Shown: positions 5,726-40,220 of the stretch, piece after piece | Position numbering within the stretch: position 1 is the first letter of the stretch | Layout of the letters: every line of letters begins with the position of its first letter | Virus record (IMG/VR): IMGVR_UViG_3300025103_003050 | Coordinates: 1-52,328 of that record | Length of the DNA: 52,328 nt | Origin: a virus | Taxonomy: Duplodnaviria > Caudoviricetes | Reading direction: 5' to 3' (one strand) | Position numbers and translations under genes: made by a program | Notes under the pieces: generated by a model | What the model saw: the letters and a program-made list of their open reading frames with translations, nothing else | Databases searched by the model: none | What the model was told of the DNA's origin: nothing

Positions 5726-6130
5726 CTATATATTATTTTTTTCTTTTTTAGACAAGATTATTCGTATTGTGTTCCAATCTTTCGCTATCGCTTTTTGCTC
5801 CCATTCTTCCCGAGTTACACCAATCGCTAAAGCTTCACCTTCTGAACTTGGAAATAAATAAATTTCTTTATCCTTTTTCACAATTATATAGACAAGTCCT
5901 CCGTGATAGGTATAAGACTTGTGCCATGCGATTTGTTCTATACTCAGCTTTAGCTTTAATTTGGTTTTTTCTCTTTTGGGGGACCGCACATACTTACCTT
6001 CTAGCCAACCACTTTGACCAGCTGAACAGTAGTGCACATCAGGAATTCCTCGTTCAATCTGTGTCTCAATTCTCTGAATAAAAAAATCGTTTAATTTTGA
6101 TCTAATCGTCTGCCAAATTTGCTTTTCCAT
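5726..6130 (-). CDS. PD-(D/E)XK nuclease (VRR-NUC / resolvase-like)
   Basis: E.QIWQ...RIET...GIPDV...WLEGK...LSIEQIAWH. Confidence 0.8.
   Translation of the reverse strand: MEKQIWQTIRSKLNDFFIQRIETQIERGIPDVHYCSAGQSGWLEGKYVRSPKREKTKLKLKLSIEQIAWHKSYTYHGGLVYIIVKKDKEIYLFPSSEGEALAIGVTREEWEQKAIAKDWNTIRIILSKKEKNNI
5727..5755 (-). promoter_or_regulatory. Sigma70-like promoter for the structured RNA and DUF2786 gene
   Basis: TTGTCT-N17-TATATA; predicted start about 5720, at the 5' edge of the structure. Confidence 0.45.
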
Positions 6131-6866
6131 TAAACTTACATACAGGGATTGATTTCATTTTATGTAAATTCTTCTTTCTTAATTTTAAATATTTTTGATA
6201 ATCAGGCTCTGTTGGATTATTCATTAAATATTCTATTTTGGAATAAGACATTCCTAATTGATCTACATCTTTTCTTCCATCATTCCATAAACCATCGGTA
6301 GGTTCAGCATTTATTATTTCATCTAAAATTTTTAATTCTCGTGCCATATCCCATACTTGAGTTTTTGTACAATCTGCGATTGGTGAAATATCAACTCCAC
6401 CATCACCATATTTTGTAAAAAAACCTACACCAAAGTCTTCAATTTTATTACCTGTTCCTACCACAATACCCTTGGTACTAGCGGATATTTGATATAAACA
6501 CATCATTCTCATTCTTGCTCTAGAATTTGCTAAACCCATTTTATCTGTAAATTTCATATCTATCATTTGATTTTCAAAACTTAAAAAAGTATGAGTTAAA
6601 TCTAAATTAACACCATAACAATTTTGAAATTTAGTAGTTAACCAATTTTTATGTTTAATAGATAAGTCATGATCTTCGGGTCTTTGGGAAATAGGCATTG
6701 ATGCCACAAGTGTTTTAATTCCAGTTAGTCCACAAATTGTACTAACAACTGATGAATCCACTCCTCCTGAAATTCCTACTACTAAACAATTAGCAGGCGT
6801 ATCCATACTTTCAACATAATCAATTAGCCATTTTCTAATAAAATTTAGTCGTTCAAAAGGAGTCAT
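6102..6866 (-). CDS. nadE: NH3-dependent NAD+ synthetase (or homologous ATP-dependent amidating enzyme)
   Basis: SGGVDS PP-loop, NSRARMRM, GTGNKIE.GVGFFTKYGDGG, PTDGLW, D.DQLGMSY. Probable start is the ATG at 6866. Confidence 0.9.
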   Translation of the reverse strand: MTPFERLNFIRKWLIDYVESMDTPANCLVVGISGGVDSSVVSTICGLTGIKTLVASMPISQRPEDHDLSIKHKNWLTTKFQNCYGVNLDLTHTFLSFENQMIDMKFTDKMGLANSRARMRMMCLYQISASTKGIVVGTGNKIEDFGVGFFTKYGDGGVDISPIADCTKTQVWDMARELKILDEIINAEPTDGLWNDGRKDVDQLGMSYSKIEYLMNNPTEPDYQKYLKLRKKNLHKMKSIPVCKFNGKANLADD

Positions 6867-8124
6867 TATTTTTTCCAATCGGTATATATTTTACATCTTT
6901 ATTTACTTTTAAATATCTAAAAGGATCAATAACTATTGAACCTGACATAAAATAAAATTCTTTCCAAGCTTCATGTTTAGTTCCTATAAAAAATAATTGA
7001 GGTTCTTTATCCCATTTATAAGTATCCTTTACTTTCATAATATCATTATCGTCAACCCAAGGATCCCACATAGTAACTTCTTTACCTTTTTCTTTTAGAA
7101 TATTTTTCAACAAGATAGAAGGACTTCCTACTGTTAAATTAGTTTCAGGTTTAAAACATTTACCTAAAATATTTATTTTTTTATCTTCAGCATATTTTAT
7201 ACATAGATTAGCTAACCATTCAGTTTGTACTTCTCTTTGTTTCATTATATTATCATACCAATTATATGATAAATTTAATTTTTGAGCTAAATAACTCAGA
7301 GCTATATTATCTCTAGGATGACAACCTCCTCCATCTCCCATTCCCCCTGTTAAATATTTAGGACTTATAATTCTATCTGTACATAAAGCAAGAGCTTTAG
7401 TAACATCATCAACATCTGTATTAGGTAAATAATGACAAGTTTCCATAATAGTATTTATCATTGCTATCTTCGTTGAAATAAAAGTATTATAGACTACTTT
7501 AATTAATTCAGCATTTTCTAAAGTAGTTTCATGAAAAGGAGCATTATTAATTGTTTTATAAAATTCTTTAGCTTTTTTAGCAGCAGACTTATCATCTACT
7601 CCAAATAAAATAACTTCGCTATTTAAGAAATCAGTAATAGTTGTTCCCATTGCTATAAAAAATGGATTATAACAAAGTTTTAAATGTGTGCCTAAAATTG
7701 GTTTAATAAGTTTTGTAATAGTACCAGGAAGGACAGTAGATATAATAACCACAACTTTATCTTTCCCTTGTTTTTCGATTTCTTCATTTAAATCTTTTAT
7801 TCCTTTCACTAAATAATCATAATTAAAATCTGCTCTTTCTTCTGGAATACGAGTTATACCTTCATATTTTTCTTCATGCGGAGTTTGAATAGGAACAAAT
7901 ATAATATCACTTTCTTCCACAATTTTATCTGTAGTTTTTAATTTTAATTGAGATTTTTGTAATAATTTATTAGCACCTTCTTCTTTATAAGTTAAACTTT
8001 TAAATCTAATATCACGAAGTGTACGATCATTAATATCTGTACCAATAACAGTATGACCTTTACTTTCACACGCTAAAGCTACTGGTAAACCTAGTTTTCC
8101 TAACCCGATAAAACCTATTTTCAT
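6853..8124 (-). CDS. ugd: UDP-glucose/GDP-mannose 6-dehydrogenase family
   Basis: GLGKLG Rossmann motif, AELIK..YN, catalytic GGGCHPRD. Confidence 0.85.
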   Translation of the reverse strand: MKIGFIGLGKLGLPVALACESKGHTVIGTDINDRTLRDIRFKSLTYKEEGANKLLQKSQLKLKTTDKIVEESDIIFVPIQTPHEEKYEGITRIPEERADFNYDYLVKGIKDLNEEIEKQGKDKVVVIISTVLPGTITKLIKPILGTHLKLCYNPFFIAMGTTITDFLNSEVILFGVDDKSAAKKAKEFYKTINNAPFHETTLENAELIKVVYNTFISTKIAMINTIMETCHYLPNTDVDDVTKALALCTDRIISPKYLTGGMGDGGGCHPRDNIALSYLAQKLNLSYNWYDNIMKQREVQTEWLANLCIKYAEDKKINILGKCFKPETNLTVGSPSILLKNILKEKGKEVTMWDPWVDDNDIMKVKDTYKWDKEPQLFFIGTKHEAWKEFYFMSGSIVIDPFRYLKVNKDVKYIPIGKNNDSF

Positions 8125-9966
8125 TTATTTTGCGTTACCCCAATTATCTCCTTTCTCGACATCCACCTTTAAGGGCACTTTCAACTTTACGCAAGTTTTC
8201 ATGATTTGTAAAGCTTCTTCAAAACATTTTTGTTTATTCCAAGGAATTGAAAAATCTAATTCATCGTGAATAGTTAGTTTTAAATCTATTTCATCTAAAA
8301 TTCCTGCTTCATAAATTTTTAACATTGCAGCTTTTGTAATATCAGCTGATGAACCTTGAATTAAAGCATTTAATGCTGTATGAGTATAAGCTCGTTTTAA
8401 TTCTTGTTTAGGATACTGTGCGTGTGCTTCGGAAAGTGTATATGCTCTTTCTCCCCAACTATCTCTAGGTTCCCACATATCAAATCTTCTTTTACGACCA
8501 AGTAAAGTTTTAATATAACCCCTACTCCCTGCCACATTTGATACTTGTCTTGATAATTCTTTAACAAATGGTACTTTATTATGATATTGATTAAATAATT
8601 CATAAGCTTGATCTTGTTCTAATCCTAATTGTGCAGCTAATTTTTTATTTCCCATACCATAGAATAATCCTAAATTAATAGTCTTGGCTTGCTTTCTTTC
8701 TATTCCTGCCATATTAGCAACCATTTGATGAAAATCTGTTTTATCATTTCTACAAAATTCTTTTTGAACTTGTAAAGCACTTTTCATATCTTTAAGACTA
8801 GCATAATGTACTAATACTCTAGGTTCTTGTTGAGAGTAATCCGCACAATACCATTCGGAATCTTCTTCTGGTATAAATAAACTTCTGATCATCGGACCAA
8901 GTTCAGGGTCTCTAGCTGGTACTTGTTGAAGATTAGGATATTGAGAACTAAATCTTCCTGTAACTGTACCCATTGGATTAAAACTACAATGTATACGACC
9001 ATTAACAGATTTATCAATAATCATGTTTTTAATAAATGTATTTCGTATCTTGTCTAATTTACGAATATTTAAAATACTTTGACTAACATCATCCACTTGA
9101 GTTTCCAGCCAACTTGCAGTGAAAGATGGAGTACCTTTTGCGGTGTAGTTATATTTAATGTTATTTTTATCATATGCTTCCTTTAAAGAGGCGTTTGCCC
9201 ATACATTAACTATGGTTCCTCCTAAAGTATTTAGTCGTGATTGCATATGAATTTGTTTTTTTTCTAACTCTACATATAATTTATGGGCTTTATCAACATC
9301 AACTCTTACTCCTTTTTTTCTCATTTCAAATAGAACTTGAATTAACTTTGATTCAAATTTAATTATATCTTCAATACCTTCTCTCTTTATTCTTTCTTGT
9401 TGTTTTTGATATATTTGTAAAGTAAGTAAAGCATCTTCTTTAGCATATTCACTTACTTCATTTGCGTGTAGTCTCCATAAATTTTCTTTTACTTTAGCAC
9501 GTTTACCAAACTTATATAAGACAGCTTGTTCGAGTTCAACTTCATATTTAGATTTTCTTAAATAAAACTTTGCTAATGAGTTTAATGAATACTTTAATTT
9601 ATTTTCATCAAGTAGATGTTCTATTGCAAGTACATCTAAAATCTCGTGACTACGAGTAAGGGTAAGTCGCTTATCCAGTGAATAAAGCCACTCTACGTCA
9701 TACATTGCGTTAGCAAATACGAGCTTTTTCTTCTTTGAGTAAATATATAATAAAAAACTAATGACTTTTTCTTTATTTAAATTTCCACCACCTTGGTGTT
9801 TAATTGGAAAATATTCGTTATATCCACTATCAGTTGCAATAGAAATACCTGCTATGAAACCATCTTTTCTAAAACCACCAGGACCCATTGTTTTAAGATT
9901 AGGATCATAGGTCTCGGTATCTATTGCTATTAAATTTGCTTCATCTATTTTATTTACATTAAACAT
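8125..9966 (-). CDS. polA: Family A DNA polymerase with 3'-5' exonuclease
   Basis: DTET exo I, TGRFSS..PNLQQVP, motif A DYSQQEPR, motif B RKQAKTINLGLFYG, motif C HDE. Confidence 0.95.
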   Translation of the reverse strand: MFNVNKIDEANLIAIDTETYDPNLKTMGPGGFRKDGFIAGISIATDSGYNEYFPIKHQGGGNLNKEKVISFLLYIYSKKKKLVFANAMYDVEWLYSLDKRLTLTRSHEILDVLAIEHLLDENKLKYSLNSLAKFYLRKSKYEVELEQAVLYKFGKRAKVKENLWRLHANEVSEYAKEDALLTLQIYQKQQERIKREGIEDIIKFESKLIQVLFEMRKKGVRVDVDKAHKLYVELEKKQIHMQSRLNTLGGTIVNVWANASLKEAYDKNNIKYNYTAKGTPSFTASWLETQVDDVSQSILNIRKLDKIRNTFIKNMIIDKSVNGRIHCSFNPMGTVTGRFSSQYPNLQQVPARDPELGPMIRSLFIPEEDSEWYCADYSQQEPRVLVHYASLKDMKSALQVQKEFCRNDKTDFHQMVANMAGIERKQAKTINLGLFYGMGNKKLAAQLGLEQDQAYELFNQYHNKVPFVKELSRQVSNVAGSRGYIKTLLGRKRRFDMWEPRDSWGERAYTLSEAHAQYPKQELKRAYTHTALNALIQGSSADITKAAMLKIYEAGILDEIDLKLTIHDELDFSIPWNKQKCFEEALQIMKTCVKLKVPLKVDVEKGDNWGNAK

Positions 9967-10430
9967 TAATTTAATTTTCCTAAAATAAAATTAATATTAA
10001 TATAAGCCCAATCTCTATCTGTCATACCCCATAATCTTTCAGCATCTTTTTGAATATATTTTTCTCCAAATACAATTCTTTTAGCTGAAGTATTTAAAAG
10101 TAATTTAACACAATGAATACAAGGACTTACTGTACAATAGACTGTATGTATATCATATACATCTTTACATTGAAGTAATGCGTTTTGCTCAGCATGTATA
10201 GCTTCACATTTATCTAAATCTTTTCCACTTGTAGAGTGTGCTCCTTTGCAAGGATTATCTAAACAATGAGTAAACCCACTTGGATTTCCATTATAACCAG
10301 TTGCTAATACATGATTTTTTTTATTTACTAAAATACAACCAACTTTTCTTCTGACACAAGTTCCTCGTTCTGATACTAACAACGCCATTCTTAAAAAATA
10401 AAAATCAGCAGGTTGTCTATAATTATCCAT
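9966..10430 (-). CDS. dCMP deaminase
   Basis: TGYNG, HAEQNA, SPCIHC. Probable start MDNYRQ at 10430. Confidence 0.9.
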   Translation of the reverse strand: MDNYRQPADFYFLRMALLVSERGTCVRRKVGCILVNKKNHVLATGYNGNPSGFTHCLDNPCKGAHSTSGKDLDKCEAIHAEQNALLQCKDVYDIHTVYCTVSPCIHCVKLLLNTSAKRIVFGEKYIQKDAERLWGMTDRDWAYININFILGKLN

Positions 10431-10614
10431 ATTTTTTAAATTTATAAATTTTAGCTGAATCAAATCTTGAGGATGTTACTACTCTTTTTATTAATAGATA
10501 TTCTTTTAACTTTTTATAACATTCCTGACAATAAAAAAAATTATTTTCAGTTTCAATAAAACTAAAAATAAGTCGATCACAAGTTTTACAATTATATGAT
10601 TCTTGATTAGCCAT
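10423..10614 (-). CDS. Small zinc-finger protein
   Basis: CKTC...CQEC. Confidence 0.55.
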   Translation of the reverse strand: MANQESYNCKTCDRLIFSFIETENNFFYCQECYKKLKEYLLIKRVVTSSRFDSAKIYKFKKYG

Positions 10615-11440
10615 ATATTAAATAATCTAATCTTTCAGAGAGTAATCCATTAGGTCTTAACTCTGTGCCTTTTAAATTTGCCATTTCCCATAAAATATCA
10701 ATAAATTTAGTAGGAGTTTTTTTATACTTTTCAATAAGATTATTTAAATTAAAATCTTCATCTTGATATGTACTTGTAAATATATTATCTAATTTACTAA
10801 AATCATTTTCATAAAGATGTCTACTTCCTGCTTGTATATTTAATTCACCTAACTTACATTTTAATCCACGAAAATTTAACCAACAAAGTATATAAAAAGA
10901 GATTGCACTAAAGTTAAAAGTATCATAAGGAGTACCTAACCAGGCGTCATTACTTCTCATACTAGCAATCGTATGTAACCATAACTCATCACTTGCTTCT
11001 CTTAATAAAAATTGTAAAGATAAAGTACAAGGAATATCTTTACTTGATCTAGGATTCTCTCTCCATATGTTTATAACAGCTTGTCTACTATCATTATCTT
11101 TTATTAAAGTATTAATTACATAAGATGTTTGAGTAATAATTTTAGGACCATAAGCTCCAAAAAAAGTTACACCATCATCACTAAATCTTTTAACTCCATC
11201 AACATATTTAGCTACACTTGCAACATCATTTCTACCACTTAACATCCAGGCTGCTTCACCAAACATAAAACTATAAGATAATTTTCTTTCAGGTATCGTT
11301 ATAATAGGGTCTTCCATACCTATTTTAAAAGAGTGATTAATTTTTTCTTTTATATTTAATCCTCTAGGTTTACACATAAACTCAGGAAGATTATAAATAT
11401 CCCATAACATTTTTTTATATCTGATATTAGTTTCTTTCAC
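10607..11440 (-). CDS. Thymidylate synthase superfamily enzyme, probable dCMP hydroxymethylase
   Basis: GAYG, DSRQA, DIPC (catalytic Cys138), MRSND.WLG.PYD with Asp173 at the base-specificity position, GSRHLY. Confidence 0.8.
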   Translation of the reverse strand: MKETNIRYKKMLWDIYNLPEFMCKPRGLNIKEKINHSFKIGMEDPIITIPERKLSYSFMFGEAAWMLSGRNDVASVAKYVDGVKRFSDDGVTFFGAYGPKIITQTSYVINTLIKDNDSRQAVINIWRENPRSSKDIPCTLSLQFLLREASDELWLHTIASMRSNDAWLGTPYDTFNFSAISFYILCWLNFRGLKCKLGELNIQAGSRHLYENDFSKLDNIFTSTYQDEDFNLNNLIEKYKKTPTKFIDILWEMANLKGTELRPNGLLSERLDYLIYG

Positions 11441-11441
11441 T

Positions 11442-11636
11442 TTAATCTTTCACTTTAATTTTATTTGTATCTATAATTTTTTTAATATCTTTACCTTTTT
11501 TATTTACATATGCACATATAATTTTTGTTTTTGGAAATTTTAAAACTAATTTTTTTAACATTTTTTTAAATGACATCGCTTCTATTGTTTCTTGTTTTTC
11601 ATCTGTTAAAGAAGTAATTATATAACTATATCGCAT
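11442..11636 (-). CDS. Small basic hypothetical protein
   Basis: ORF track; operon-packed. Confidence 0.6.
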   Translation of the reverse strand: MRYSYIITSLTDEKQETIEAMSFKKMLKKLVLKFPKTKIICAYVNKKGKDIKKIIDTNKIKVKD

Positions 11637-12189
11637 TTAAAACCTTATCTGTAAATTGATCTAATTTATAGCCATCTTTAAACATATCGTATCTGATAAA
11701 ATCTTTTCTTTCTCTTAAAGGAGATAAATTTTTAATAAAAACATTTCTTTTACATTTACCAAACCAAGAAAAATAATAATCATCTATTACTGAATCTATA
11801 TTATCATATTCTTCGTGTCTTAAAGTTTTATTTAATCTATGATTTTCTTTTACTCTTGCTGTATCTTCTGGAATACACCAAATATATTTTGCACCTCTTT
11901 CTTTTAATCTAGTATATAAAAAACCCGGATTATAACTTGGACCACTACTTCTTATATAAGAATAAAATTGTTCACTAGGCCAATGTCTATCTATTAAAAC
12001 TAATTTACCTTCAAGTTGTTTTCTTACTGCTAATCTTGCACTAGCTGTATGCCACAATTTCATATTTTTATGAACTCTTAAATGCATATAATAAGAGTTT
12101 TTAAATTTTTTTTTAATATGATTTATTAATGTAGTTTTACCTACACCATCAGGTCCTTCAAATATTAAGATTTTTCCTTTAATAAACAT
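11626..12189 (-). CDS. dNMP (thymidylate-like) kinase
   Basis: IFEGPDGVGKTT P-loop and IDR...SE motif. Confidence 0.85.
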   Translation of the reverse strand: MFIKGKILIFEGPDGVGKTTLINHIKKKFKNSYYMHLRVHKNMKLWHTASARLAVRKQLEGKLVLIDRHWPSEQFYSYIRSSGPSYNPGFLYTRLKERGAKYIWCIPEDTARVKENHRLNKTLRHEEYDNIDSVIDDYYFSWFGKCKRNVFIKNLSPLRERKDFIRYDMFKDGYKLDQFTDKVLNAI

Positions 12190-13199
12190 TTAAAAAATTC
12201 TTTCGTTCTTTCTTTCGACCAAAATTTATTTTTTAAAATTTCAGCTTGACTATTAAATACTTTAGTTAATTCATCATTACTACATTTTTCTAAATTTTCA
12301 GGTTCATGATAAAAACCTAATACTTTAGTTTCTTCAGGATGACCATAGATAATACATCCTGCATCTAATGCCATTTTATATCTTACTCTCCACCAGCCAC
12401 TTCCTTGTAAAGTATGATAATGAGGCGGACTTATTATTCCCCATATTTTACAATACTCTGCAAATAATTCATGTTCTTTTAATCTTGTTTGTCCTTCTTT
12501 TATATTTCCAAAAGTTTTTACAGGCCAATTAAAATATTGTTGTTTTAACCAATTTTGTTTACTTACTAAACTAGCACAAGCCCATTCTTTTTTTCTTTCA
12601 TGAGATTGACTTGAAAATAAATTTATTAAATCAGGATGATTTAAATGTAAATTACAATAAATTGAAGGATCCCAATTTATAATTTCTTTAGCTCTCATCC
12701 CTAAAGTTTCATAATTACCACCATCATAAGCTGGAATTAAAAGTTTATAAGGCCATTCTTCAAAAGCAAATGTATCTACAAAATCTTCTATTTCTTTTTT
12801 ATAATCTTGAGCCTCATCCCAATTAACTTTTCCTACTGGATTTCCTGCTTTACTTAATTTTTTCCATATTCTCCAATGACCTCTACTAAAAGTTCCAAAA
12901 CCACTTACTGAATCTTTAGTTTGCCAATCATCTATTGATACAATTGCATCTGGTCTTTTAATTAAAGTATATGCTGCACCATACCAAAAACGTGCTGATA
13001 AACTATTAGGACCAAATACAAATACAAAAACTTTATCATATTGAGAAACATCTTCTCCCGGGACAATTGCTTTTTGAGTAACATCATGTCCTAAATCTTT
13101 TAAAACTGTAGGTAATATTCTAGCTGATGTAGATATATTTAGTGTACTTCTTGCTGTTCCTACAGCTAATGCATTAAAGCCTGTTATTAGTATTTTCAT
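12165..13199 (-). CDS. GT-B glycosyltransferase, T4 DNA beta-glucosyltransferase-like
   Basis: Probable start MKILITG (344 aa). Blocks DVSQYDKVFV, IDDWQ, KTFGN, WRVRYKMALDAGCII and SQAEILK parallel remembered T4 BGT segments. Confidence 0.65.
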   Translation of the reverse strand: MKILITGFNALAVGTARSTLNISTSARILPTVLKDLGHDVTQKAIVPGEDVSQYDKVFVFVFGPNSLSARFWYGAAYTLIKRPDAIVSIDDWQTKDSVSGFGTFSRGHWRIWKKLSKAGNPVGKVNWDEAQDYKKEIEDFVDTFAFEEWPYKLLIPAYDGGNYETLGMRAKEIINWDPSIYCNLHLNHPDLINLFSSQSHERKKEWACASLVSKQNWLKQQYFNWPVKTFGNIKEGQTRLKEHELFAEYCKIWGIISPPHYHTLQGSGWWRVRYKMALDAGCIIYGHPEETKVLGFYHEPENLEKCSNDELTKVFNSQAEILKNKFWSKERTKEFFKCLLKEKS

Positions 13200-13629
13200 C
13201 TTGTTTTTCTTTTTCTTCTTCAATTATTTGTTCTAGATCAGGTGGTCTCCATCCTTTAGGCTTTACTACATCAAAAGATGTACCACGTTTTTTAGATTTA
13301 CTTTTAGTTCTTATTTTACTCATATTGGCTTTTTGTACTTCATTCCAAGCTTTTTCAAAAGGTAAATTAAAAAGCCACGCAGTTCCTAATGCAATATAAA
13401 CTATATCAACAAGAGCATCTAAAGCACCAGCTGTATCTTTTTTAGTTATTGCTTGAGTATATTCTGTAAGTTCTTCTAATAAAAAAGAAGTTCTAAAATT
13501 AACTAATTCATTATTTTCTGGTATACCAACTTTATCATTTTTTTCAAATCCAAATTTTTTATGAAAAGCATCAATATCTTTTATTAAAGTATCTTTATCC
13601 ATATCTTCAAACATATCTTCATAAGTCAT
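13174..13629 (-). CDS. MazG-like / PRA-PH all-alpha NTP pyrophosphohydrolase
   Basis: EELTE...DALVDIVY...EVQKANMSK...KPKGWRPP. Confidence 0.85.
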   Translation of the reverse strand: MTYEDMFEDMDKDTLIKDIDAFHKKFGFEKNDKVGIPENNELVNFRTSFLLEELTEYTQAITKKDTAGALDALVDIVYIALGTAWLFNLPFEKAWNEVQKANMSKIRTKSKSKKRGTSFDVVKPKGWRPPDLEQIIEEEKEKQDENTNNRL

Positions 13630-14045
13630 AAGTGATATTCAAAATTCCTTCCTTCTTGATGAGTTTTTAATTCTACAGCTCCTTTTCTTAAATGAAATTT
13701 TCTAGCCATTTCTGTTAAAGGAGAAAGAGTAACTAATTTTTTTACTTCTTCTTGATGAGCATAAAATTTTAAATGATTTATTAATAAACTTCCTGCTCCT
13801 TTTTTATTACTCCATAAACTATAAGCTACTAATATATCTCCTCCTAAATTGGTAAGTGCACTTAATTCTCTTATATTTCTAGGAATTCCTAAAGTTCTTG
13901 CTATACATACTACTCCTATAATATCTCCATTTAATTGTTCTAATCCAAATATTTTTCTTCCATGATTTAATCTCCATTTTAAATCTAATTCAGGTCTAAT
14001 AGGATCCTCTTTAATATTAATAGTTTTTAATTCTTTAAAGATCAT
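13626..14045 (-). CDS. GNAT-fold acyltransferase-like protein
   Basis: YSLWS.KKGAGSLLI and ARKFH.RKGA acyl-CoA-binding-like segments. Confidence 0.6.
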   Translation of the reverse strand: MIFKELKTINIKEDPIRPELDLKWRLNHGRKIFGLEQLNGDIIGVVCIARTLGIPRNIRELSALTNLGGDILVAYSLWSNKKGAGSLLINHLKFYAHQEEVKKLVTLSPLTEMARKFHLRKGAVELKTHQEGRNFEYHL

Positions 14046-15100
14046 AATAATGTAGCTTGTTCTGGTACCTTTCTAAAATCTATAATTTGTAATTCTTCTT
14101 CTTTTTTATTCTTTTCTTTAATACTATTTTTTATTATTCTTGCTACATATTCAGCGACAGGAGGCATTACTCCACGTGCGATTTGTGATCCTATACTAGA
14201 ACTTGGTCCTTCCCATTTATAATCTACTGGAAAACCTGCCATATAAGCTAATTCTTTATGACCAAATAATCTATCTTCATTAGGATGTATATAGAATCCT
14301 CCTGCTATAACTGGTATATGTGCATTATCTTTTAATCTCCATTTCATAAATTGAGGTCTACCTTTTACTCCTCCACGCATTCCTCCTCGTACCCAAGTTT
14401 CTGGTGGATTATATCTTTCCCATGTTACTCTTAAACTTTCTCCTTGTTTACAATGTTTAAGATAAGGTTTTTCATTTTCTCCTAACTTCATTAAATGTCC
14501 TATATCGGATCCATGTTCTTTTTTAAATTCACTTAAAACTTCTCCCGCTGTTGGTAATGGTTGAAAATTTAAAATATGCGGATTTAATCCATATTTAGTT
14601 GCTATAAAAAAAAATCTTTTTCTACTATGATTTAAACCAGTAAAGCCTCCATCAATTAATAAATGGGTAACTTGATAATTTAATTTATTTGCTTCTTTAG
14701 TTAATTCCATAATCATTGGATATCCTCCATTTTTAGAGTAAATTCGAGGAACTGATTCAATAGCTAAAGCTGTGGGATTTAATTCTTTTAAAAGATTAAA
14801 GCTATTTCTCCAACATGCAATTCTAGGATCATCTCTCCATGCTCCTGCTCCTTTCTGTGCTCCTCCTAAATTAGACCAAGGAGCACATGGTGGATTGCAA
14901 TAAACAAAATCAATCTTATTTTTAAATTTTTTTCGAGGCCATTCTTCTTCACCTTCATATACAGGAATATTTGGAAAATTAGCTTTAAAAGTTTTTTTAT
15001 ATAAACCTGGTTTCATTTCGAAATGAGCTTCAACATCAAAATGTTTACTTACTCCAAGAGTAAAACCGCCAGCAAATATATAAGTTCCTAATGCTTTCAT
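14042..15100 (-). CDS. C5-cytosine DNA methyltransferase homologue, possibly a carboxymethyltransferase
   Basis: PPC (IV), ESV (VI), HSRKR (VIII), KEL..MAGFP (IX). Altered motif I (YIFAGG) and motif X (QIARGV). Confidence 0.85.
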   Translation of the reverse strand: MKALGTYIFAGGFTLGVSKHFDVEAHFEMKPGLYKKTFKANFPNIPVYEGEEEWPRKKFKNKIDFVYCNPPCAPWSNLGGAQKGAGAWRDDPRIACWRNSFNLLKELNPTALAIESVPRIYSKNGGYPMIMELTKEANKLNYQVTHLLIDGGFTGLNHSRKRFFFIATKYGLNPHILNFQPLPTAGEVLSEFKKEHGSDIGHLMKLGENEKPYLKHCKQGESLRVTWERYNPPETWVRGGMRGGVKGRPQFMKWRLKDNAHIPVIAGGFYIHPNEDRLFGHKELAYMAGFPVDYKWEGPSSSIGSQIARGVMPPVAEYVARIIKNSIKEKNKKEEELQIIDFRKVPEQATLL

Positions 15101-16608
15101 CGTAATTCGTAACTATACTTCGTTTCTGGATGCAACAAGAACAAATTTTTTTTAGCTCGTGTTACAGCTACATAAAAAACTCTATGTTCATCATCTGGTT
15201 CAACATTAAATTTTCTCCAAGTTTTATAAGAAATATCGGAAATAACCACAACATTATCACTTTCTCCTCCTTTTATTCCATGAATAGTTGATAATCTTAT
15301 CCTCGCTTTATTTTTAAAAATATCTCCTGATTTAATTAAAGATTCAAACATTAAAATATCTTCGGGATCTAGACCAAAAATAACTTCTTGCCATTCTCCT
15401 TTAGCAATTAATCCTACATTTTCTCTTAAATCTTGAAGAGAAAATTCTTTATTTTGATCAATACCTTCTAATTTTTTAAAACCTCTAGTGATTCCTGTTT
15501 TACTTTTAATACACTGATATAATTTTTTTAATTCATCAAAAGAAATAGTTTCACCTCTATTTAATTTAATCCATGATCTAATAGCAATAACAAATTTATT
15601 AGTTTTAAATTCGTGGTAACCTTTTTCATAAAACCAACCCATTCTTTTACAATAAGATTCAGCTTTAAATAATTGATAACCTGATCGAGCTAATATAAGC
15701 CATTCTCCTTCTGACATATCTACATCTTCAATGGAATAAATATCAGTTATTGATCCTTGATCCTTTCTTGAAGTCCAATTTTTTACTTGTCTTAAAGAAA
15801 TTTTATGAGAAATATCACAAGCTAATTTATGAATAGTTTTTGGCAATCTATAACTTATAGGTAATACTTCAATATTACCTTTAATATTTAAAAATCTTTT
15901 AACATCAGCTCCTGCCCAACGATAGATAGCTTGATCATCATCACCTGCTATATATCTAAATTTACAATATTCATTTATTCTTTCTATTACTTTCCATTGT
16001 TTAGTTGTTAAATCTTGAGCTTCATCTACAAAAATAATATCTAATTGTGGAATAGTTTCTTCTTTTATAAAAATATCTAGCATATCAGTAAAATCTAAAA
16101 GATTTTTAGATTTCTTAAAATTAATTAATGCTTTAGAAAAGTATTCTTGTTCTTCCCAAGTATGTTCACATTCTAATTCTTTCCACACGTCTTTTAAATC
16201 TCTTTCACTTGATCTTGAAACTTCATCACAGAATAAAAGTAAATCACCTCTTTTATTTCCGACAGATAATCCAGATGTATCTTCTTCAGATACTCCTGAC
16301 ATTTCTACTCTAGCAATTTCACTAAATTCTTTTACACGTTCTCCTTTAAAAACTTGACCACTATTTATATTTAAAGTTCGATAACATAAACTATGGATAG
16401 TCCTAAAATATTCTAAATCATCTTCTGAAAGATTAAATTTTTTAATAACCCTACTTCTTGCTTCTCTAATTGCTCTACGAGTAAAAGAAAAAAATCCAAT
16501 TTTTTCAGGTTTATATCCTTCTGCAATTTTTTCTTCTAAAAGTTTTAAAAGAGTTGTAGTTTTTCCTGTACCAGGACTACCAAAAATTTTAATTGTCTTA
16601 CTTTCCAT
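15097..16608 (-). CDS. UvrD/Rep-like SF1 helicase
   Basis: GSPGTGKTT, DEAQD, GDDDQAIY, STIHGIKGGE, YVAVTRAK. Confidence 0.92.
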   Translation of the reverse strand: MESKTIKIFGSPGTGKTTTLLKLLEEKIAEGYKPEKIGFFSFTRRAIREARSRVIKKFNLSEDDLEYFRTIHSLCYRTLNINSGQVFKGERVKEFSEIARVEMSGVSEEDTSGLSVGNKRGDLLLFCDEVSRSSERDLKDVWKELECEHTWEEQEYFSKALINFKKSKNLLDFTDMLDIFIKEETIPQLDIIFVDEAQDLTTKQWKVIERINEYCKFRYIAGDDDQAIYRWAGADVKRFLNIKGNIEVLPISYRLPKTIHKLACDISHKISLRQVKNWTSRKDQGSITDIYSIEDVDMSEGEWLILARSGYQLFKAESYCKRMGWFYEKGYHEFKTNKFVIAIRSWIKLNRGETISFDELKKLYQCIKSKTGITRGFKKLEGIDQNKEFSLQDLRENVGLIAKGEWQEVIFGLDPEDILMFESLIKSGDIFKNKARIRLSTIHGIKGGESDNVVVISDISYKTWRKFNVEPDDEHRVFYVAVTRAKKNLFLLHPETKYSYELR

Positions 16609-17410
16609 TATGTTTATTATATATTTTTCTTAAAGTAGCACGTTGTTTATCTGATAATAAAATATGTTTATCACCATTTTTATTTGTTTTTTCAATTACT
16701 GATTGACAAAAACTATTTTCCCAATCATTTAATTTATTTTTATTAATATTATTTAAAAAATTAATTAAGTTTTGATATTTATTTCCTTCTATTCTATTTA
16801 ATAATTCTTTAGGAATAGCTTGATGAGTAACTTCTTCAATACCTATTCTTTTCATATGAAAATATAATTCTCTACATAATTGAACATCTAATAAAGCATC
16901 GTGATAATTATGAATTCCTCTATGAAAAAAATGTTTAAAACATTCTTCTAATTTAGGAAATTTATAATCATTATAATCAGCTTTTAATTTTAATTGATCT
17001 TTAGCCATCATCATAGTACAATGTAATTTTTGAGGCTGTTTATAAATAAAATTTAAAAGTGTTAATTCTCGTTCTAATATTTGTAAATCAAAAGCTAAAT
17101 TATGAGCAACCATTGTATGACACTTACTTATAAAGTAAGTCATCATAGCTAAAGGATACTGTAAAGCTATTCCTGTATCTTGGGCTTCTTTAGTAGATAT
17201 TCCATGAATATCTTCAACTTCTTTAGGAATAATAAAATCAGGTACATCTCTTGATTTTGGCTCTATTCGACTAGAATATTGAGCTATAATTTTTTCTTTA
17301 TCATCGCATACTTGAAAAGCTATACTTACAAGTCTAGGTTGATCTTTATGATTAGAAGGTAAATCCCTTCTCCATAACCCATTAGTTTCAGTATCAAAAA
17401 ATATATACAT
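16598..17410 (-). CDS. DEDDh 3'-5' exonuclease (DnaQ-like)
   Basis: FFDTETNG, HNLAFD, HDALLD. Confidence 0.9.
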   Translation of the reverse strand: MYIFFDTETNGLWRRDLPSNHKDQPRLVSIAFQVCDDKEKIIAQYSSRIEPKSRDVPDFIIPKEVEDIHGISTKEAQDTGIALQYPLAMMTYFISKCHTMVAHNLAFDLQILERELTLLNFIYKQPQKLHCTMMMAKDQLKLKADYNDYKFPKLEECFKHFFHRGIHNYHDALLDVQLCRELYFHMKRIGIEEVTHQAIPKELLNRIEGNKYQNLINFLNNINKNKLNDWENSFCQSVIEKTNKNGDKHILLSDKQRATLRKIYNKHNGK

Positions 17411-17598
17411 TATACTCCTTTTGTTAATTTAAATTCAAGACCTTTAATTTCTACTTTGCTATCTTTTTTATTTTCTTTAATATAAGTATCCATAAATAAA
17501 ACTGCAGCAGTTAAACCTTGTATATCTGCTTTATAATGTGGATCATTATATTTTTTAGCATGTGTTAATAAAATATTAATAGCTCTATCTTTATTCAT
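17410..17598 (-). CDS. Hypothetical protein, 62 aa
   Basis: AAGGAGG RBS; coupled to neighbours. Confidence 0.65.
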   Translation of the reverse strand: MNKDRAINILLTHAKKYNDPHYKADIQGLTAAVLFMDTYIKENKKDSKVEIKGLEFKLTKGV

Positions 17599-19096
17599 AC
17601 GCCTCCTTATTTATATTTGGTTGTTTAAATTCTTCAGTTTGTACTTGAAAACTTGGAATAGACCAAGTATTCGTAAATTTTCCTTTTATCTTTTTTCCGC
17701 TATGAGTAGCACCTAAATTTTTCAAATAGGCAGTAATTTCATGTAATTTAAATTCTTTAAATCGATGTCTATCTAAAAATTCCATAAAATCATTTATTCT
17801 AAATTCTGTTATTTTATCTTGAATAATAGATTTTCCTCTTAATAAATCTTCTATTTCTGTAGAAGAAGTGGAACCAGTACAAAATCTTTCTAATAGATCA
17901 AATAATCTACCTTCATTACTACTATCTTTAGGTGCTTCAACAGCAATAACTCTAGACATTAAATCATTAACAGTTTCAGTCCATAATTTATCATTTATTT
18001 TAGGAAGAAGCATATCTAAATTCTCAAATACAACTTGTTTAAAATCTAAAAAATTATAAATTTGTTTACTAGATAATGGACCAATTTTTTTCTCACTTAA
18101 AGTTAAAAAATATTGTGGTGGATTAGTTAATATTTTAGTAATACTATTTAAAGTAGGCATTGTACCATCATCATTAATACCATATTCACATGTAATACAT
18201 TTAGTTTTATTACAAACTGAATTAATTGGTGAATCTTTACATTTATAATTATAAGTTTTTTTATCTAAACTTTGTAATACTGTTGTAAATTCTCTAGGTT
18301 TAAGGGGAGGATCAATGTATTCATCATTATATTCTTCTAATTTATCTTGCCAATCTTCTGGAAATCTTTTCCTTAAATAAACTCCAATATTAAAAAGACC
18401 ATTATTTCTACTACCTTCTCCTAATGCTCCTTTAGAAAGTAAATCTTGGAGGCAAGGTGGCCCGCCTGGTAAAATTTCGTTGGATTTATTAAGTTTTTTG
18501 ATAAAAGTTAGATCCAGAGATTCAAGTGAATCTAATGAAAATTTTTCTACCCATTTAATAAAGTGTTCAGGTGTTAATACTTGGCCATCATAAAGAGCAT
18601 ATCTATCAGTGGATTCTCCACCAAAGTATGGCATATTTAACCAACTGCCACAATCATTATCATCAATTAATTTAGTTTGCTGTGGTCTTAAATCATATTT
18701 AACAAAACCAAATGCTTTTACAATTTCTTTTAATTTATTAATCATTGAAGAAGCAGATACAAAATTTTTAGTAAAAATAAAAATATGGGCTCCTCCTGAT
18801 TTTGATCTACATACTATTAAATTCTTTTTTATAAACTGTTTACTAATTTTTTCTATATCAACAGAATAATCATCGACATCTAGACAACCCCATTTACATT
18901 TATTTTCTTTATTAATTGGAATAACACCTAGACCAGTTTTACCATCTAGGTGTTGTTTCCAAAGTTCAGCGACATAATTTTCCCTTATGGTCTTTCCATA
19001 GCCATCAAGTTTAGGACCTTTTCTTTCTGTTATAAAAAATTGGCCATAAGCTCTGGTTAGGCCTGGAAAGACCTTGAAAAAATCTTCATAAAGCAT
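17591..19096 (-). CDS. Archaeo-eukaryotic-type primase with PriCT-like domain
   Basis: GCLDVD, RSKSGGAHIF, LNMPYF, PPCL...GSRNNGLF. Confidence 0.8.
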   Translation of the reverse strand: MLYEDFFKVFPGLTRAYGQFFITERKGPKLDGYGKTIRENYVAELWKQHLDGKTGLGVIPINKENKCKWGCLDVDDYSVDIEKISKQFIKKNLIVCRSKSGGAHIFIFTKNFVSASSMINKLKEIVKAFGFVKYDLRPQQTKLIDDNDCGSWLNMPYFGGESTDRYALYDGQVLTPEHFIKWVEKFSLDSLESLDLTFIKKLNKSNEILPGGPPCLQDLLSKGALGEGSRNNGLFNIGVYLRKRFPEDWQDKLEEYNDEYIDPPLKPREFTTVLQSLDKKTYNYKCKDSPINSVCNKTKCITCEYGINDDGTMPTLNSITKILTNPPQYFLTLSEKKIGPLSSKQIYNFLDFKQVVFENLDMLLPKINDKLWTETVNDLMSRVIAVEAPKDSSNEGRLFDLLERFCTGSTSSTEIEDLLRGKSIIQDKITEFRINDFMEFLDRHRFKEFKLHEITAYLKNLGATHSGKKIKGKFTNTWSIPSFQVQTEEFKQPNINKEAYE

Positions 19097-20877: not shown

Positions 20878-22359
20878 ATGCAAGTAAAATTTATAAATGA
20901 AAAGAAATTTTTAAAATATAATTTTAAAACTAAACCTTATCAACATCAATATGATGCATTTGATAAAAGTAAAGAAAAAAAATATTATGCTTTATTTATG
21001 GAACAGGGTACAGGAAAATCTAAAGTTATTATTGATAACATTGCTTATCTTTATCGAAAAGGTAATATTGATACTGCTATTATTGCTGCCCCTAAAGGTG
21101 TATATCGTAATTGGTATGCTTCAGAATTTAAAGCTCATATGCCTGCAGATGTGGTTAGTTTTACAGATATATGTATTTGGAATCCAATAGAAACTAAAAC
21201 TAATATTGAAAGATTAACTAAATTTTTAGAATTTTCTCATAAATTAAAATTTTTTATTATTAATATAGAAGCTCTATCTACAGAGAAAGGTAAAAACTAT
21301 TTACAACGATTATTAAATATTTCTAAATCTTTTTTCTGTATAGATGAAAGCACTAATATAAAAAATAGAACTGCTAGAAGAACTAAAGCATGTATGAAGT
21401 TAGGTAAATTAGCAACTTATCGAAGAATATTAACAGGAACTCCAGTGACCCAAGGTCCATTAGACTTATGGTCTCAAATGCATTTTCTAGATGAGTTTAT
21501 ACTTCAATCGAGTTTCTATGCTTATCGAAATACATTTTGTGTTATTCAAAGAAGAAGAACATCTAGTCATAGTTTTGATGAAGTAGTAGGTTATCAAAGA
21601 TTAGATGAACTTCAAAAAATATTAGATGAACATTCTTTTAGAGTAACTAAAGAAGAATGTTTAGATTTACCACCTAAACTACGTCAAATAAGACATATCG
21701 ACATGACACCGGCTCAAAAGCGCATGTATGTCATACTTAAAAAACGTGCTATACTAGAACTAGAACGTGAGAAATTAGTGACGGCGCCTCTTATTATCAC
21801 ACGAATATTGAGATTACAGCAGATATTATGTGGATTTATTAAATATGATAATAAAACTGAAGAAAATATAGAAGGTGAGAATCCAAGGATTCAGGAACTA
21901 TTAAGTGTAATAGAAGAAACTCAAGGCAACATAATTATATGGGCAACTTATAGAAATAGTATTAAATTAATTAGAGATACATTAGCTAAAAAATTTGGAG
22001 CAAGTAAAGTTGCAGCTTTCTTTGGTGATACTAAAGCAGAAGATAGACAAGGTATTGTTGAAAGATTTCAATCAGGAGAATTAAGATTTTTTGTAGGACA
22101 ACCTAGAACTGGTGGATATGGACTTACATTAACTAATGCTAAAACTGTAATCTATTTTAATAATACTTATGATATGGAAGTTAGACTTCAATCTGAAGAT
22201 AGAGCACATAGAATTGGACAAAAGGATAAAGTATTATATATAGATTTTATATGTCCTAATACTTTAGATGAAAAGATAATGAAAACTTTAAATACTAAAA
22301 AGAAACTCGCTGATCAAATAACTGGTGATAATTGGAAAGAATTATTTAAAGAACTTTAG
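20878..22359 (+). CDS. SNF2-family (SF2) helicase
   Basis: MEQGTGKS, DEST, LTGTP, GGYGLTL, QSEDRAHRIGQ. Confidence 0.92.
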   Translation: MQVKFINEKKFLKYNFKTKPYQHQYDAFDKSKEKKYYALFMEQGTGKSKVIIDNIAYLYRKGNIDTAIIAAPKGVYRNWYASEFKAHMPADVVSFTDICIWNPIETKTNIERLTKFLEFSHKLKFFIINIEALSTEKGKNYLQRLLNISKSFFCIDESTNIKNRTARRTKACMKLGKLATYRRILTGTPVTQGPLDLWSQMHFLDEFILQSSFYAYRNTFCVIQRRRTSSHSFDEVVGYQRLDELQKILDEHSFRVTKEECLDLPPKLRQIRHIDMTPAQKRMYVILKKRAILELEREKLVTAPLIITRILRLQQILCGFIKYDNKTEENIEGENPRIQELLSVIEETQGNIIIWATYRNSIKLIRDTLAKKFGASKVAAFFGDTKAEDRQGIVERFQSGELRFFVGQPRTGGYGLTLTNAKTVIYFNNTYDMEVRLQSEDRAHRIGQKDKVLYIDFICPNTLDEKIMKTLNTKKKLADQITGDNWKELFKEL

Positions 22360-35324: not shown

Positions 35325-35960
35325 TTACTTTTTAGGTAAAGTAAAGCCTTTATACCAGGCAGGAACGCCTAGAAATGGACGTTTATCAAACTCATTTTCT
35401 TTAGCTAATTTAGAACCTTTTTTATTATAATGTAAAAATACTTGTGCACAATCTTTACCAGTAAATTCTTCTCTCCAATGTTCAAGATCACATCCGGAAT
35501 ATATTAACATGTCACCTGGTTCTAGTTTTACTTTAATACCAGCTTGACCTTCTTTACTTGTTGGGTCTAAATATATAGGCCAATCATCACCACCTAGATT
35601 TAAAGTAGTAGATATTTCACAACTAAATCTATCTTTGTGTCTAGCTAAAACATCTCCTTTTTTATATATTCTTGCATAAGAATATGTTTCACTTAATTTT
35701 AATTTAGTATGTTTCTCCATTACAGGTTTAACTTTCTGTAGTAAAGTCTCCATAACTAAATCACTATAATGAGAATAAGTATTAGGAACTTGTTGATCAT
35801 TCCATACTCCCCAATACTCTGTAAATGGTGATATATATTTTTGATTAAATAAAAATTGCGCAACCTTTCTTTTATTTAAGAAATAAGCAAAAGAAAAATC
35901 TGCTAATTCTCTACTAATAGCGCCTTTTAATACTGTATATTTATTTTTTTTGAATGACAT
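35325..35960 (-). CDS. 2OG-Fe(II) oxygenase
   Basis: HKD...HWR facial triad; QVFLHY. Confidence 0.8.
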   Translation of the reverse strand: MSFKKNKYTVLKGAISRELADFSFAYFLNKRKVAQFLFNQKYISPFTEYWGVWNDQQVPNTYSHYSDLVMETLLQKVKPVMEKHTKLKLSETYSYARIYKKGDVLARHKDRFSCEISTTLNLGGDDWPIYLDPTSKEGQAGIKVKLEPGDMLIYSGCDLEHWREEFTGKDCAQVFLHYNKKGSKLAKENEFDKRPFLGVPAWYKGFTLPKK

Positions 35961-37889: not shown

Positions 37890-37907
37890 AATTGATCTAG
37901 ATCAATT
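37890..37907. promoter_or_regulatory. Perfect 18-bp palindrome containing an FNR/CRP-family box
   Basis: AATTGATCTAGATCAATT contains TTGAT-N4-ATCAA. Confidence 0.6.
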
Positions 37908-39714: not shown

Positions 39715-39727
39715 GCTTTAAGTCTCC

Positions 39728-40162: not shown

Positions 40163-40220
40163 ATTTTTACTCCTTAAAAGTTATAATTTATATTTTTTTT
40201 TACTTTTGTACATATTTAAT

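Follow-up and report, generated by a model that had tools for sequence, protein, structure and literature searches.

The window analysed here is the whole of the IMG/VR viral record IMGVR_UViG_3300025103_003050, a linear stretch of 52,328 bp with a CheckV completeness estimate of 85%, a G+C content of ~0.29 and nearly all of its genes on the minus strand. At positions 6102-15100 it contains twelve minus-strand open reading frames (ORFs), all overlapping or abutting, which an earlier reading of the sequence (the original prediction) had singled out as a DNA hypermodification operon built around the DNA polymerase. All twelve are present and form a tight cluster, but the operon runs past both of the borders given for it: upstream it reaches a UvrD-like helicase (15097-16608), an RNase T-like exonuclease (16598-17410) and, farther on, an AEP primase (17591-19096) plus genes like gp33 and gp34 of Pam3, and downstream it continues into a 134-aa ORF (5726-6130). 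In this region an uncultured, low-GC marine phage has its operon for replication and nucleotide metabolism, which probably encodes a T4-style route to a modified cytosine, with a methyltransferase-like enzyme and a UGDH-NadE gene pair as additions. The genes, in the order of transcription, are as follows.

14042..15100, minus strand: C5-cytosine-methyltransferase (C5-MTase)-like enzyme of an uncharacterised clade (PF00145, 1.4e-27; motif IV NPPCA, motif VI ESV, motif X A-R-G-V-M-P-P with Arg309)
13626..14045, minus strand: 139-aa ORF, weakly GNAT-like, a strain-specific insert (PF00583, E 0.0032, 18.2 bits, below the 20.7 cut-off)
13174..13629, minus strand: MazG/PRA-PH-type all-alpha NTP pyrophosphatase, putative dCTPase and functional analogue of T4 gp56 (PF01503, 1.9e-12; phrog_671, 2.2e-33)
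12165..13223, minus strand: GT-B glycosyltransferase of 352 aa, putatively acting on 5-hydroxymethylcytosine (5hmC) in DNA (predicted structure nearest to T4 beta-glucosyltransferase, BGT; no Pfam match)
11626..12189, minus strand: P-loop dNMP kinase-like protein, putative 5-hydroxymethyl-dCMP kinase and gp1 analogue (phrog_761, 1.9e-12; PF02223, 1.6e-5, P-loop only)
11442..11636, minus strand: 64-aa ORF whose coding status is unsupported (no family match, no homologue)
10607..11440, minus strand: thymidylate synthase (TS) homologue with a dCMP hydroxymethylase signature, as in T4 gp42 and MilA (PF00303, 4.1e-15)
10423..10614, minus strand: 63-aa ORF with two CxxC pairs, not conserved (no family match, no homologue)
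9966..10463, minus strand: zinc-dependent dCMP deaminase (PF00383, 5.8e-22)
8125..9966, minus strand: family A DNA polymerase (PolA) with 3'-5' exonuclease (PF00476, 4e-74; PF01612, 4.5e-8)
6853..8124, minus strand: nucleotide-sugar 6-dehydrogenase of the UGDH type (three UDPG_MGDP_dh domains; TIGR03026; phrog_9148, 1.7e-87)
6102..6878, minus strand: NadE-family PP-loop ATP-dependent amidating enzyme, short form (PF02540, 2.6e-44; TIGR00552)
5726..6130, minus strand: conserved 134-aa ORF after the UGDH-NadE pair (no Pfam match)

Family profiles support the labels that the original prediction gave to the C5-MTase, MazG, TS, deaminase, PolA, UGDH and NadE genes (the Pfam search covered 40 of the 78 ORFs that are 70 aa or longer and two shorter ones), and two SU10-adaptor-like proteins found in the same Pfam run fit its description of the phage as podovirus-like. 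The nearest phage relatives of the PolA are 023Pt_psg01 (45%), DSL-LC04 (43%) and pelagiphage HTVC023P (42%). A megablast search of the 9-kb region against phage records gave no match, the window contains no tRNA that could point to a host, and the ThyX profile (PF02511) had no match in the window, a contig that is 85% complete by estimate.

An IMG/VR scan with the 352-aa glycosyltransferase ORF returned 25 loci of 70-97% identity, all of them collinear with the window across the MTase, MazG, glycosyltransferase, kinase, TS, deaminase, PolA, UGDH, NadE, 134-aa ORF and DUF2786 genes; NadE is present in all 18 of the loci that extend that far, the remaining seven ending sooner. Because synteny among close kin says little about function, the search was widened with an alignment of distant MTase homologues, which yielded 80 further loci. 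Neighbours were counted at loci flanked by 5 kb or more on each side (18 close, 9 sister and 23 distant loci, 50 in all) by tblastn with the window's own proteins at 1e-4, which misses diverged or non-homologous analogues; the two locus sets share some contigs, and the counts were made without de-duplication. The TS homologue lies near the MTase-like gene at 18/18 close, 9/9 sister and 22/23 distant loci, and MazG at 18/18, 9/9 and 18/23, respectively. Gene order varies across the distant loci that hold the TS homologue. The dCMP deaminase adjoins the TS homologue in most loci, again in differing gene orders, and the kinase also adjoins it in HTVC200P and MW202510. The survey of neighbourhoods that the original prediction had called for shows a linkage of the MTase-like and TS genes, but not of UGDH-NadE, which in five other phages occurs without genes for hydroxymethylcytosine near it.

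The small ORFs of the cluster behave differently from the genes around them. The GNAT-like ORF is found in none of the 25 related loci and in none of the 50 full-flank loci, has no PHROG or NCBIfam match, scores under the gathering cut-off of PF00583, and has only two homologues, both in unrelated contexts. At locus L004, whose MTase is 98% identical, the slot between MTase and MazG (L004 8724-9597) is filled by three unrelated small ORFs, of which, by eye, two are hydrophobic and one is lipoprotein-like. Since this slot holds unrelated ORFs in L004 and the relatives lack the GNAT-like ORF, the slot is hypervariable and the ORF is a strain-specific insert outside the conserved cluster, which leaves the acylated sugar of the original prediction without support. 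The 64-aa and 63-aa ORFs have no counterpart in the 25 related loci. Close, sister and some distant loci have the 134-aa ORF behind PolA or NadE; it aligns with L003 10245-10421 at 27% identity over 66 aa (E 4e-5) and weakly resembles a gene annotated as VRR-NUC behind PolA in MW202510.

We compared the TS homologue by alignment with E. coli ThyA and T4 gp42, whose sequences come from their genome records, at the twelve residues within 6 Å of C5 that are listed in PMC13326640 (this and the other papers cited here by number are drawn on in part). The window protein reads V Y D C T M R S N D G D at these positions and gp42 reads W Y D C T M R S N D G D, so that the two agree at 11 of the 12 (in E. 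coli numbering, Y94, D143, C146, T147, M165, R166, S167, N168, D169, G173 and D177). The catalytic C146 is kept, and the changes from ThyA include N177D and L143D. According to PMC13326640, N177D marks a preference for dCMP over dUMP, and an acidic residue at L143, through water access, marks hydroxymethyl over methyl transfer. Among 62 distinct TS homologues of the related loci, D177 and D143 are each found in 61 and D169 in 60, the two exceptions at D169 being a Glu in a divergent row and a gap in a truncated one. The best solved relative of the window protein is MilA, a CMP hydroxymethylase (5.4e-27), while true thymidylate synthases score ~3e-6. Its identity as a gp42-type dCMP hydroxymethylase is therefore well supported by the active-site signature. 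We also considered a 5-hydroxy-dCMP synthase of the RB69 gp48 type, which is marked by an Asn at ThyA D169 (PMC13326640), and this was ruled out by the retained D169.

The company of the TS homologue is consistent with this assignment. In the MetaGPA study, the trio of TS, PRA-PH and dCMP deaminase was enriched on cytosine-modified metavirome contigs (PMC8670742), and the window holds the same trio. The MazG-like protein has no detectable similarity to any T4 protein including gp56, an empty search that carries little weight. The kinase label of the original prediction holds in that thymidylate-kinase models match, although they do so just around the P-loop.

Neither Pfam (E 0.01) nor NCBIfam (E 0.001) gave a match for the 352-aa ORF, whose family comprises 38 clusters, all metagenomic and without Pfam domains. 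Its label as a GT-B enzyme is borne out by predicted structure and not by any family profile. An AlphaFold2 (AF2) model built from a 19-row alignment (pLDDT 84, pTM 0.85) returned T4 BGT as the top Foldseek match (1bgu/1qkj, E 4e-6), and in VIA-align it superposed on T4 BGT 1nzd with Z 17.5 and an rmsd of 3.8 over 287 residues, whereas SenB, glycogen synthase, BshA and T4 alpha-glucosyltransferase gave Z 15-16.4; identities in these structural alignments are 12-14%. On this predicted structure we regard the GT-B fold of the ORF as certain, and it is closest to that of T4 beta-glucosyltransferase. We infer 5hmC in DNA as its acceptor from the fold and from linkage and fusion to DNA-modifying domains: one ORF encodes both the MTase-like and the glycosyltransferase domain in L043 (827 aa) and in L048 (870 aa). 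No other glycosyltransferase was detected in the window among the ORFs covered by Pfam.

Because a gp42-type signature occurs in the company of MazG, kinase, deaminase and PolA genes and of a BGT-like fold, we predict glycosylated 5hmC in the phage DNA. Going by their signatures, the MazG-like pyrophosphatase would remove dCTP to give dCMP, the TS homologue would convert dCMP to 5-hydroxymethyl-dCMP, the kinase would phosphorylate this product, and PolA would incorporate 5-hydroxymethyl-dCTP, while the dCMP deaminase would supply dUMP for the dTTP needs of a 71% A+T genome. The BGT-like enzyme would then glycosylate 5hmC in DNA after replication, as suggested by its fold and linkage. We consider 5hmC in the phage DNA very probable, and its glycosylation is likely. 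The T4-like route of the original prediction thereby gains the support of both the gp42 signature and the predicted fold.

The MTase-like enzyme stands apart from this T4-like core. Its AF2 model (pLDDT 90) is that of a complete C5-MTase with a target-recognition domain, and it matches DNMT1, HaeIII, HhaI and the CmoX structure 8yf3 alike with Z 26-28 (26.0 to 8yf3), so that structural ranking does not put it closer to CmoX than to HhaI, HaeIII or DNMT1. The original prediction had called the MTase altered, and alignments confirm both the motif changes and Arg309. In the alignment with DNMT1, 'IARGVMPP' faces 'IGNAVPPP' with R309 opposite the Asn of GNAV, and R309 also aligns with R350 of SpCmoX (the CmoX of S-B43, sequence from MN018232). 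Across 114 database homologues, N precedes PPC in 112 (with two gaps), A follows the catalytic Cys in 111, ESV replaces ENV in 111, and the motif X residue is R in 59, K in 18, Q in 30, D in 2 and G in 1, with 4 gaps. The three altered positions correspond to Q82, N120 and N304 of HhaI, which we take to line the pocket around the transferred methyl group. Read from the alignments, the swaps Q to A, N to S and N to R suggest that a 5-substituted cytosine, or a group that is larger or anionic, may occupy the pocket.

By its motifs (NPPCA, ESV and Arg), the MTase homologue belongs to a sharply defined, uncharacterised clade. A tblastn search with the window MTase at 1e-8 found no clade member in 50,697 phage records, and the distant clade member P0116 retrieved generic C5-MTases only, at no more than 28% identity, among the best 30 of 201 records. 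We found no description of this clade or its fusions in the literature, of which the supplements may hold relevant tables. As the original prediction had surmised, the combination of genes was not found in cultured phage records either.

Sixteen MTase homologues are at least 617 aa long. Five of these carry a BGT-like glycosyltransferase, five a class-I (UbiG-like) methyltransferase domain, one a 5-hmdU DNA kinase helical domain (PF18723, 3.6e-29) and two carry inteins; three are of ~980 aa, and the C-terminal part of one, P0166, resembles T4 alpha-glucosyltransferase (ESM Atlas), which is a lead only. Judged by their domains, the fusion partners all derivatise hydroxymethyl-pyrimidine in DNA. 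The MTase clade is genetically tied to the hydroxymethylcytosine module and to a DNA glycosyltransferase.

A few further observations concern these proteins. In P0156 and P0163, inteins (PF03161 and PF14890, precomputed) apparently interrupt the MTase-like domain near PPC, and the BLAST match stops at residues 72-78 of the window protein and restarts ~350-370 residues on. In the sister clade, a class-I methyltransferase lies directly upstream of the MTase-like gene (L035 9354-10022 and L039 9308-9955). The 8736-bp contig L102 looks like an inverted duplication that carries every ORF, including the MTase-like one, on both strands, and is probably an assembly artefact. We asked whether the fused class-I domains could be CmoA and rejected a clear CmoA identity, as their best NCBIfam match is UbiG (2.9e-10), followed by weak CmoB and no CmoA; a BLASTP comparison with SpCmoA gave E 4e-5 over 75 aa, in the SAM motif region only.

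The UGDH of the window has the domains PF03721, PF00984 and PF03720 (6.4e-28, 1.6e-18 and 6.3e-9) and scores 222.8 bits with TIGR03026 against a cut-off of 189.8. Since the equivalog models for UDP-glucose dehydrogenase all score far under their cut-offs, its exact sugar is not fixed. The NadE-family protein has the PP-loop SGGVDS and scores 151.6 bits with PF02540 and 158.3 bits with TIGR00552 (cut-off 63.65). Among solved structures it is closest to the short NadE 3fiu (1.3e-28), which we take to be the Francisella NadE that prefers nicotinic acid mononucleotide (NaMN).

Fifteen NadE matches in phages cover at least 77% of the query, and they come from 11 distinct phages (HTVC008M, Bellamy, S-SCSM2R, P-TIM68, Sf-FS3, S-SSM7, S-SSM6a, AG-345-E15, AG-341-P01, AG-345-O18 and LR756502), of which three are marine viruses from single cells and one is an uncultured phage of 642 kb. 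In all 11 of these marine phages a UGDH homologue neighbours NadE, directly in ten and with one methyltransferase gene between them in Bellamy. This pairing is a strong and new regularity that suggests amidation of a uronate; on the strength of the adjacency, we infer that NadE may act on a carboxylate other than those of nicotinic acid adenine dinucleotide (NaAD) or NaMN. The papers we found describe neither a function for the two together nor a conserved pair, although supplements may hold relevant tables.

Within the MTase-clade loci, the close clade has UGDH at 17/18 and NadE at 14/18 full-flank loci, and the pair is a mobile two-gene accessory cassette that this sub-lineage alone has acquired, after PolA. 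The sister clade and L043 have an NDP-sugar epimerase/dehydratase in place of UGDH-NadE (PF01370, 5.7e-52 in L043, with the sister-clade genes in the same BLASTP cluster), and the DNA glycosyltransferase is therefore paired with different sugar-nucleotide enzymes in different relatives. The sister-clade gene (L035 6915-7865) lies between the exonuclease and helicase genes. Residue 35 of the glycosyltransferase is Arg in at least 95% of 26 distinct sequences from the close, UGDH-bearing clade and Asn in at least 90% of 12 sister-clade sequences; Arg35 may contact a carboxylate, but phylogeny confounds the comparison, which gives a lead only.

In the most economical view, UGDH would make UDP-glucuronic acid and the NadE-like enzyme would amidate its carboxylate, acting as a UDP-uronate (or DNA-uronate) amidase-ligase that neutralises the sugar charge, and the outcome would be a neutral hexuronamide on 5hmC. 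A link of the cassette to DNA in this phage is plausible by proximity, from its operon position, the BGT-like enzyme as the only glycosyltransferase detected, and the precedents of glucuronate on the DNA of SP-15 and of HexA on 5hmC. Use of the UGDH product for DNA falls a little short of an even chance in our estimate, and a uronamide on DNA is unlikely. In its fullest form, the proposal is that the MTase-like proteins are a new class of DNA cytosine-modifying enzymes within 5hmC pathways and that the final base is hexuronamide-5hmC made by way of the NadE-like amidase-ligase; we put this forward as a doubtful conjecture. The MTase-like enzyme might use a C6-thiolate mechanism to exchange or build on a 5-CH2-O-R group, or it might put a non-methyl group from an S-adenosylmethionine (SAM) analogue on cytosines that escape replacement, and it may act physically together with DNA glycosyltransferases or kinases.

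Several points weigh against the T4-style reading of the operon with its cassette, and some of them lead to a different account of the cassette. Every enzymatic step in it is deduced; T4 BGT leads unrelated GT-B enzymes such as SenB and glycogen synthase by 1-2 Z only, and a GT-B fold does not prove a DNA acceptor. Full replacement of cytosine by 5hmC would leave the C5 transferase without an obvious substrate, and the T4 model is silent on an MTase. NadE passes the curated NAD synthetase cut-off and so may simply make NAD, UGDH-NadE is found at 0/9 sister and 0/23 distant loci, and L058 and L081 carry UGDH truly without NadE. No hydroxymethylcytosine gene of the window lies within 7-15 kb of UGDH-NadE in the five other phages examined (5/5), and the glycan islands that hold the pair in Bellamy and HTVC008M also contain epimerases, GT25-type and other glycosyltransferases, a Nol-like carbamoyltransferase and class-I methyltransferases. 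The uronic acid or uronamide of the original prediction thus stays plausible, from proximity only, while the sister loci and the other phages speak against it. An account that we rate as a serious contender, somewhat below even, keeps the 5hmC and glycosyltransferase part and takes UGDH-NadE as an unrelated auxiliary cassette, next to PolA through chance, that supplies NAD+ or serves a glycan of the host surface or virion bearing uronic acid or uronamide, the DNA sugar being a host-supplied hexose. The mobility of the pair with other partners, its company elsewhere, its NAD synthetase score and the sister clade, which has the same glycosyltransferase at 9/9 loci and UGDH at none, all favour it, as does the usual interpretation of cyanophage sugar genes as host-surface modification (PMC9602691). 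It has to contend with the BGT-like enzyme being the only glycosyltransferase found in the window, with the co-oriented, overlapping position of UGDH and NadE in the same operon, with the different sugar-nucleotide enzyme beside the same glycosyltransferase in sister and distant relatives, and with the precedent of phage SP-15 for a phage UGDH and a uronate on DNA (PMC5977210).

The remaining explanations turn on the MTase-like enzyme and the nucleotide enzymes. The carboxymethylcytosine of the original prediction would arise if the MTase were a CmoX-type carboxymethyltransferase using host carboxy-SAM (Cx-SAM), with NadE, as an AMP-forming PP-loop amide ligase, converting 5-carboxymethylcytosine to 5-carbamoylmethylcytosine as a counterpart of CmoY, which we consider quite improbable. 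R309 aligns with SpCmoX R350, which binds the Cx-SAM carboxylate (PMC12783734), and, like SpCmoX, the window enzyme no longer has the Gln that follows the catalytic Cys (PPCA versus PPCS); SpCmoY is a 271-aa PP-loop protein of about the size of NadE. CmoA (TIGR00740) has no match in the window (85% complete by estimate) or in the whole records of four relatives (one of them 91% complete), and tblastn with the E. coli and S-B43 queries found none at the 50 full-flank loci. In PMC12783734, CmoA lies on only part of the CmoX contigs and the native CmoA of E. coli is enough for SpCmoX in vivo, and a host CmoA could serve instead of a phage-encoded one. However, the definition of CmoX given there requires SPPC, whereas NPPC is found in 112/112 alignable homologues, and the motif X residue varies. 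NadE follows UGDH and not the MTase, is found at 0/9 sister and 0/23 distant loci, and matches SpCmoY in the PP-loop only (E 0.019); no Asn synthase (PF00733) or other CmoY-like gene was found in the window, and no CmoY-like gene in the four relatives' records or at any locus. The partner genes are those of a hydroxymethylcytosine pathway, and complete replacement by 5hmC would leave no substrate for this enzyme too.

The C5 transferase would gain a substrate if both pyrimidines were modified, with the deaminase turning 5-hydroxymethyl-dCMP into 5-hydroxymethyl-dUMP, the glycosyltransferase acting on 5-hydroxymethyluracil and the MTase-like enzyme on plain cytosine. The TS-deaminase adjacency kept in most loci through several gene orders and the MTase homologue fused to a 5-hmdU DNA kinase domain speak for this arrangement. 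Deamination of 5-hydroxymethyl-dCMP by the window deaminase is putative, however, the TS homologue shows none of the known dUMP-type signatures (D replaces N177 in 61/62), and T4, which has gp42 and a dCMP deaminase, makes hydroxymethylcytosine all the same. PolA relatives include phages with hypermodified thymine such as PaMx11 (PMC11472151), but MetaGPA ties the same gene trio to modified cytosine (PMC8670742), and we give the arrangement a small chance at best. Finally, all of the families are common in phage replication modules, so that ordinary nucleotide metabolism with an ordinary Dcm-like methylase and no hypermodification might account for the operon. The active site is that of a hydroxymethylase and not of a thymidylate synthase, the MTase clade has altered pocket motifs and fusions to DNA glycosyltransferases, and a BGT-like fold is present, all of which makes this very improbable. 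A T4-style route to modified cytosine with two additions is the reading that we retain.

Which restriction, CRISPR and other defences are effective against a phage depends on its DNA hypermodifications, and the enzymes that make these are a source of tools for epigenome sequencing and DNA labelling. The locus represents an abundant marine phage lineage with predicted glycosyl-5hmC (at least 25 related IMG/VR contigs, and a glycosyltransferase family present in Tara and JGI samples). It also contains a member of an MTase clade with a rebuilt cofactor pocket, whose members are seen in no cultured phage and occur fused to a 5-hmdU DNA kinase domain or to DNA glycosyltransferases. UGDH-NadE recurs in marine phages, T4-like cyanophages and pelagiphage HTVC008M among them, and from this conserved pair we predict that a NadE-family enzyme opens a route to uronamide sugars that has so far gone unrecognised; if this is true, the same pair makes uronamide sugars across many marine phages.

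Several other genes of the window deserve mention. A 632-aa B12-binding radical SAM protein (22346-24244, minus strand; PF04055 3.7e-11, PF02310 2.7e-6) lies between the replication and structural modules and could be another modification enzyme. Next to it is a 517-aa protein with a TonB-dependent-receptor Plug domain (24246-25799, minus strand; PF07715, 4.1e-17), which is unusual for a phage and had no bacterial relative in one scan of genome contigs. The structural region includes a 2-oxoglutarate (2OG)-Fe(II) oxygenase (35941-36705, minus strand; PF13759, 5.3e-14) without a TET/JBP match; in HTVC008M, a 2OG oxygenase stands two genes off the NadE-UGDH pair. Two glycine-rich-domain proteins (37906-42137, minus strand; PF21722, 1.8e-27 and 2.1e-22) form an island of G+C 0.44-0.47 in the 0.29 genome and are probably tail fibres. 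An SNF2-family helicase (20878-22359, plus strand) is the only sizeable plus-strand ORF with a family match; the other listed plus-strand ORFs are of at most 127 aa, overlap minus-strand genes and lay outside the family scan.

Among characterised systems, the T4 pathway to glucosyl-hydroxymethylcytosine shares with the window the gp42-type active site (11/12), a kinase, an NTP pyrophosphatase, a dCMP deaminase and a BGT-like GT-B enzyme. The window phage, unlike T4, is small and PolA-based and has an extra C5-MTase-like enzyme and UGDH-NadE; its MazG-like protein lacks detectable T4 similarity and its glycosyltransferase lacks a sequence-family match. As read here, the locus works like the T4 system and is a family member by sequence for the hydroxymethylase only.

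The CmoA-CmoX-CmoY system of S-B43, which makes 5-glycylcarboxymethylcytosine (PMC12783734, PDB 8YF3), has in common with the window the C5-MTase fold, an Arg at the position of HhaI N304, the lost Gln after the catalytic Cys and a PP-loop amide-forming enzyme in the same operon. The MTases are only 22% identical, however, and the window has NPPC in place of SPPC, hydroxymethylcytosine-pathway partner genes and no CmoA, and its ligase is of the NadE family and not Asn-synthase-like, and travels with UGDH. The MTase thus shares the key Arg with CmoX and fails two of the three markers (SPPC and CmoA). The MetaGPA contigs with 5-carbamoyloxymethylcytosine likewise have TS, PRA-PH and dCMP deaminase beside tailoring enzymes, which are a carbamoyltransferase there and the BGT-like glycosyltransferase, MTase-like enzyme and UGDH-NadE in the window (PMC8670742).

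The phage MT-TET-GT clusters (PMC8256090; bioRxiv 2023.12.21.572611) also join a C5-MTase homologue to a DNA glycosyltransferase. In PMC8256090, Burke et al. report that some phage C5-MT clades with altered motifs IX and X showed no methylation activity, and in reconstituted clusters HexA and other sugars were found on 5hmC (bioRxiv 2023.12.21.572611). In the window the hydroxymethyl group would come from the nucleotide-level TS homologue; neither TET/JBP (PF12851) nor HMUDK_hel (PF18723) has a match in the window, within the completeness given above, and for want of a TET we do not class the locus as an MT-TET-GT system. Bacillus phage SP-15 has a UGDH that is 28% identical, located in a modification cluster, and carries glucuronolactone phosphate on a hypermodified uracil, so that a uronic acid is present on its DNA; the base is uracil-derived, the linkage is a phosphodiester and there is no NadE, and the authors of that study argue that the lactone form spares an added negative charge (PMC5977210). 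The arabinosyl-5-hydroxycytosine system of RB69 and DLP3 (PMC13326640) differs in its D169N change, the window keeping D169, and in its sugar pathway, and it shares with the window a TS homologue, a kinase, DNA glycosyltransferases and a phage-made sugar-nucleotide.

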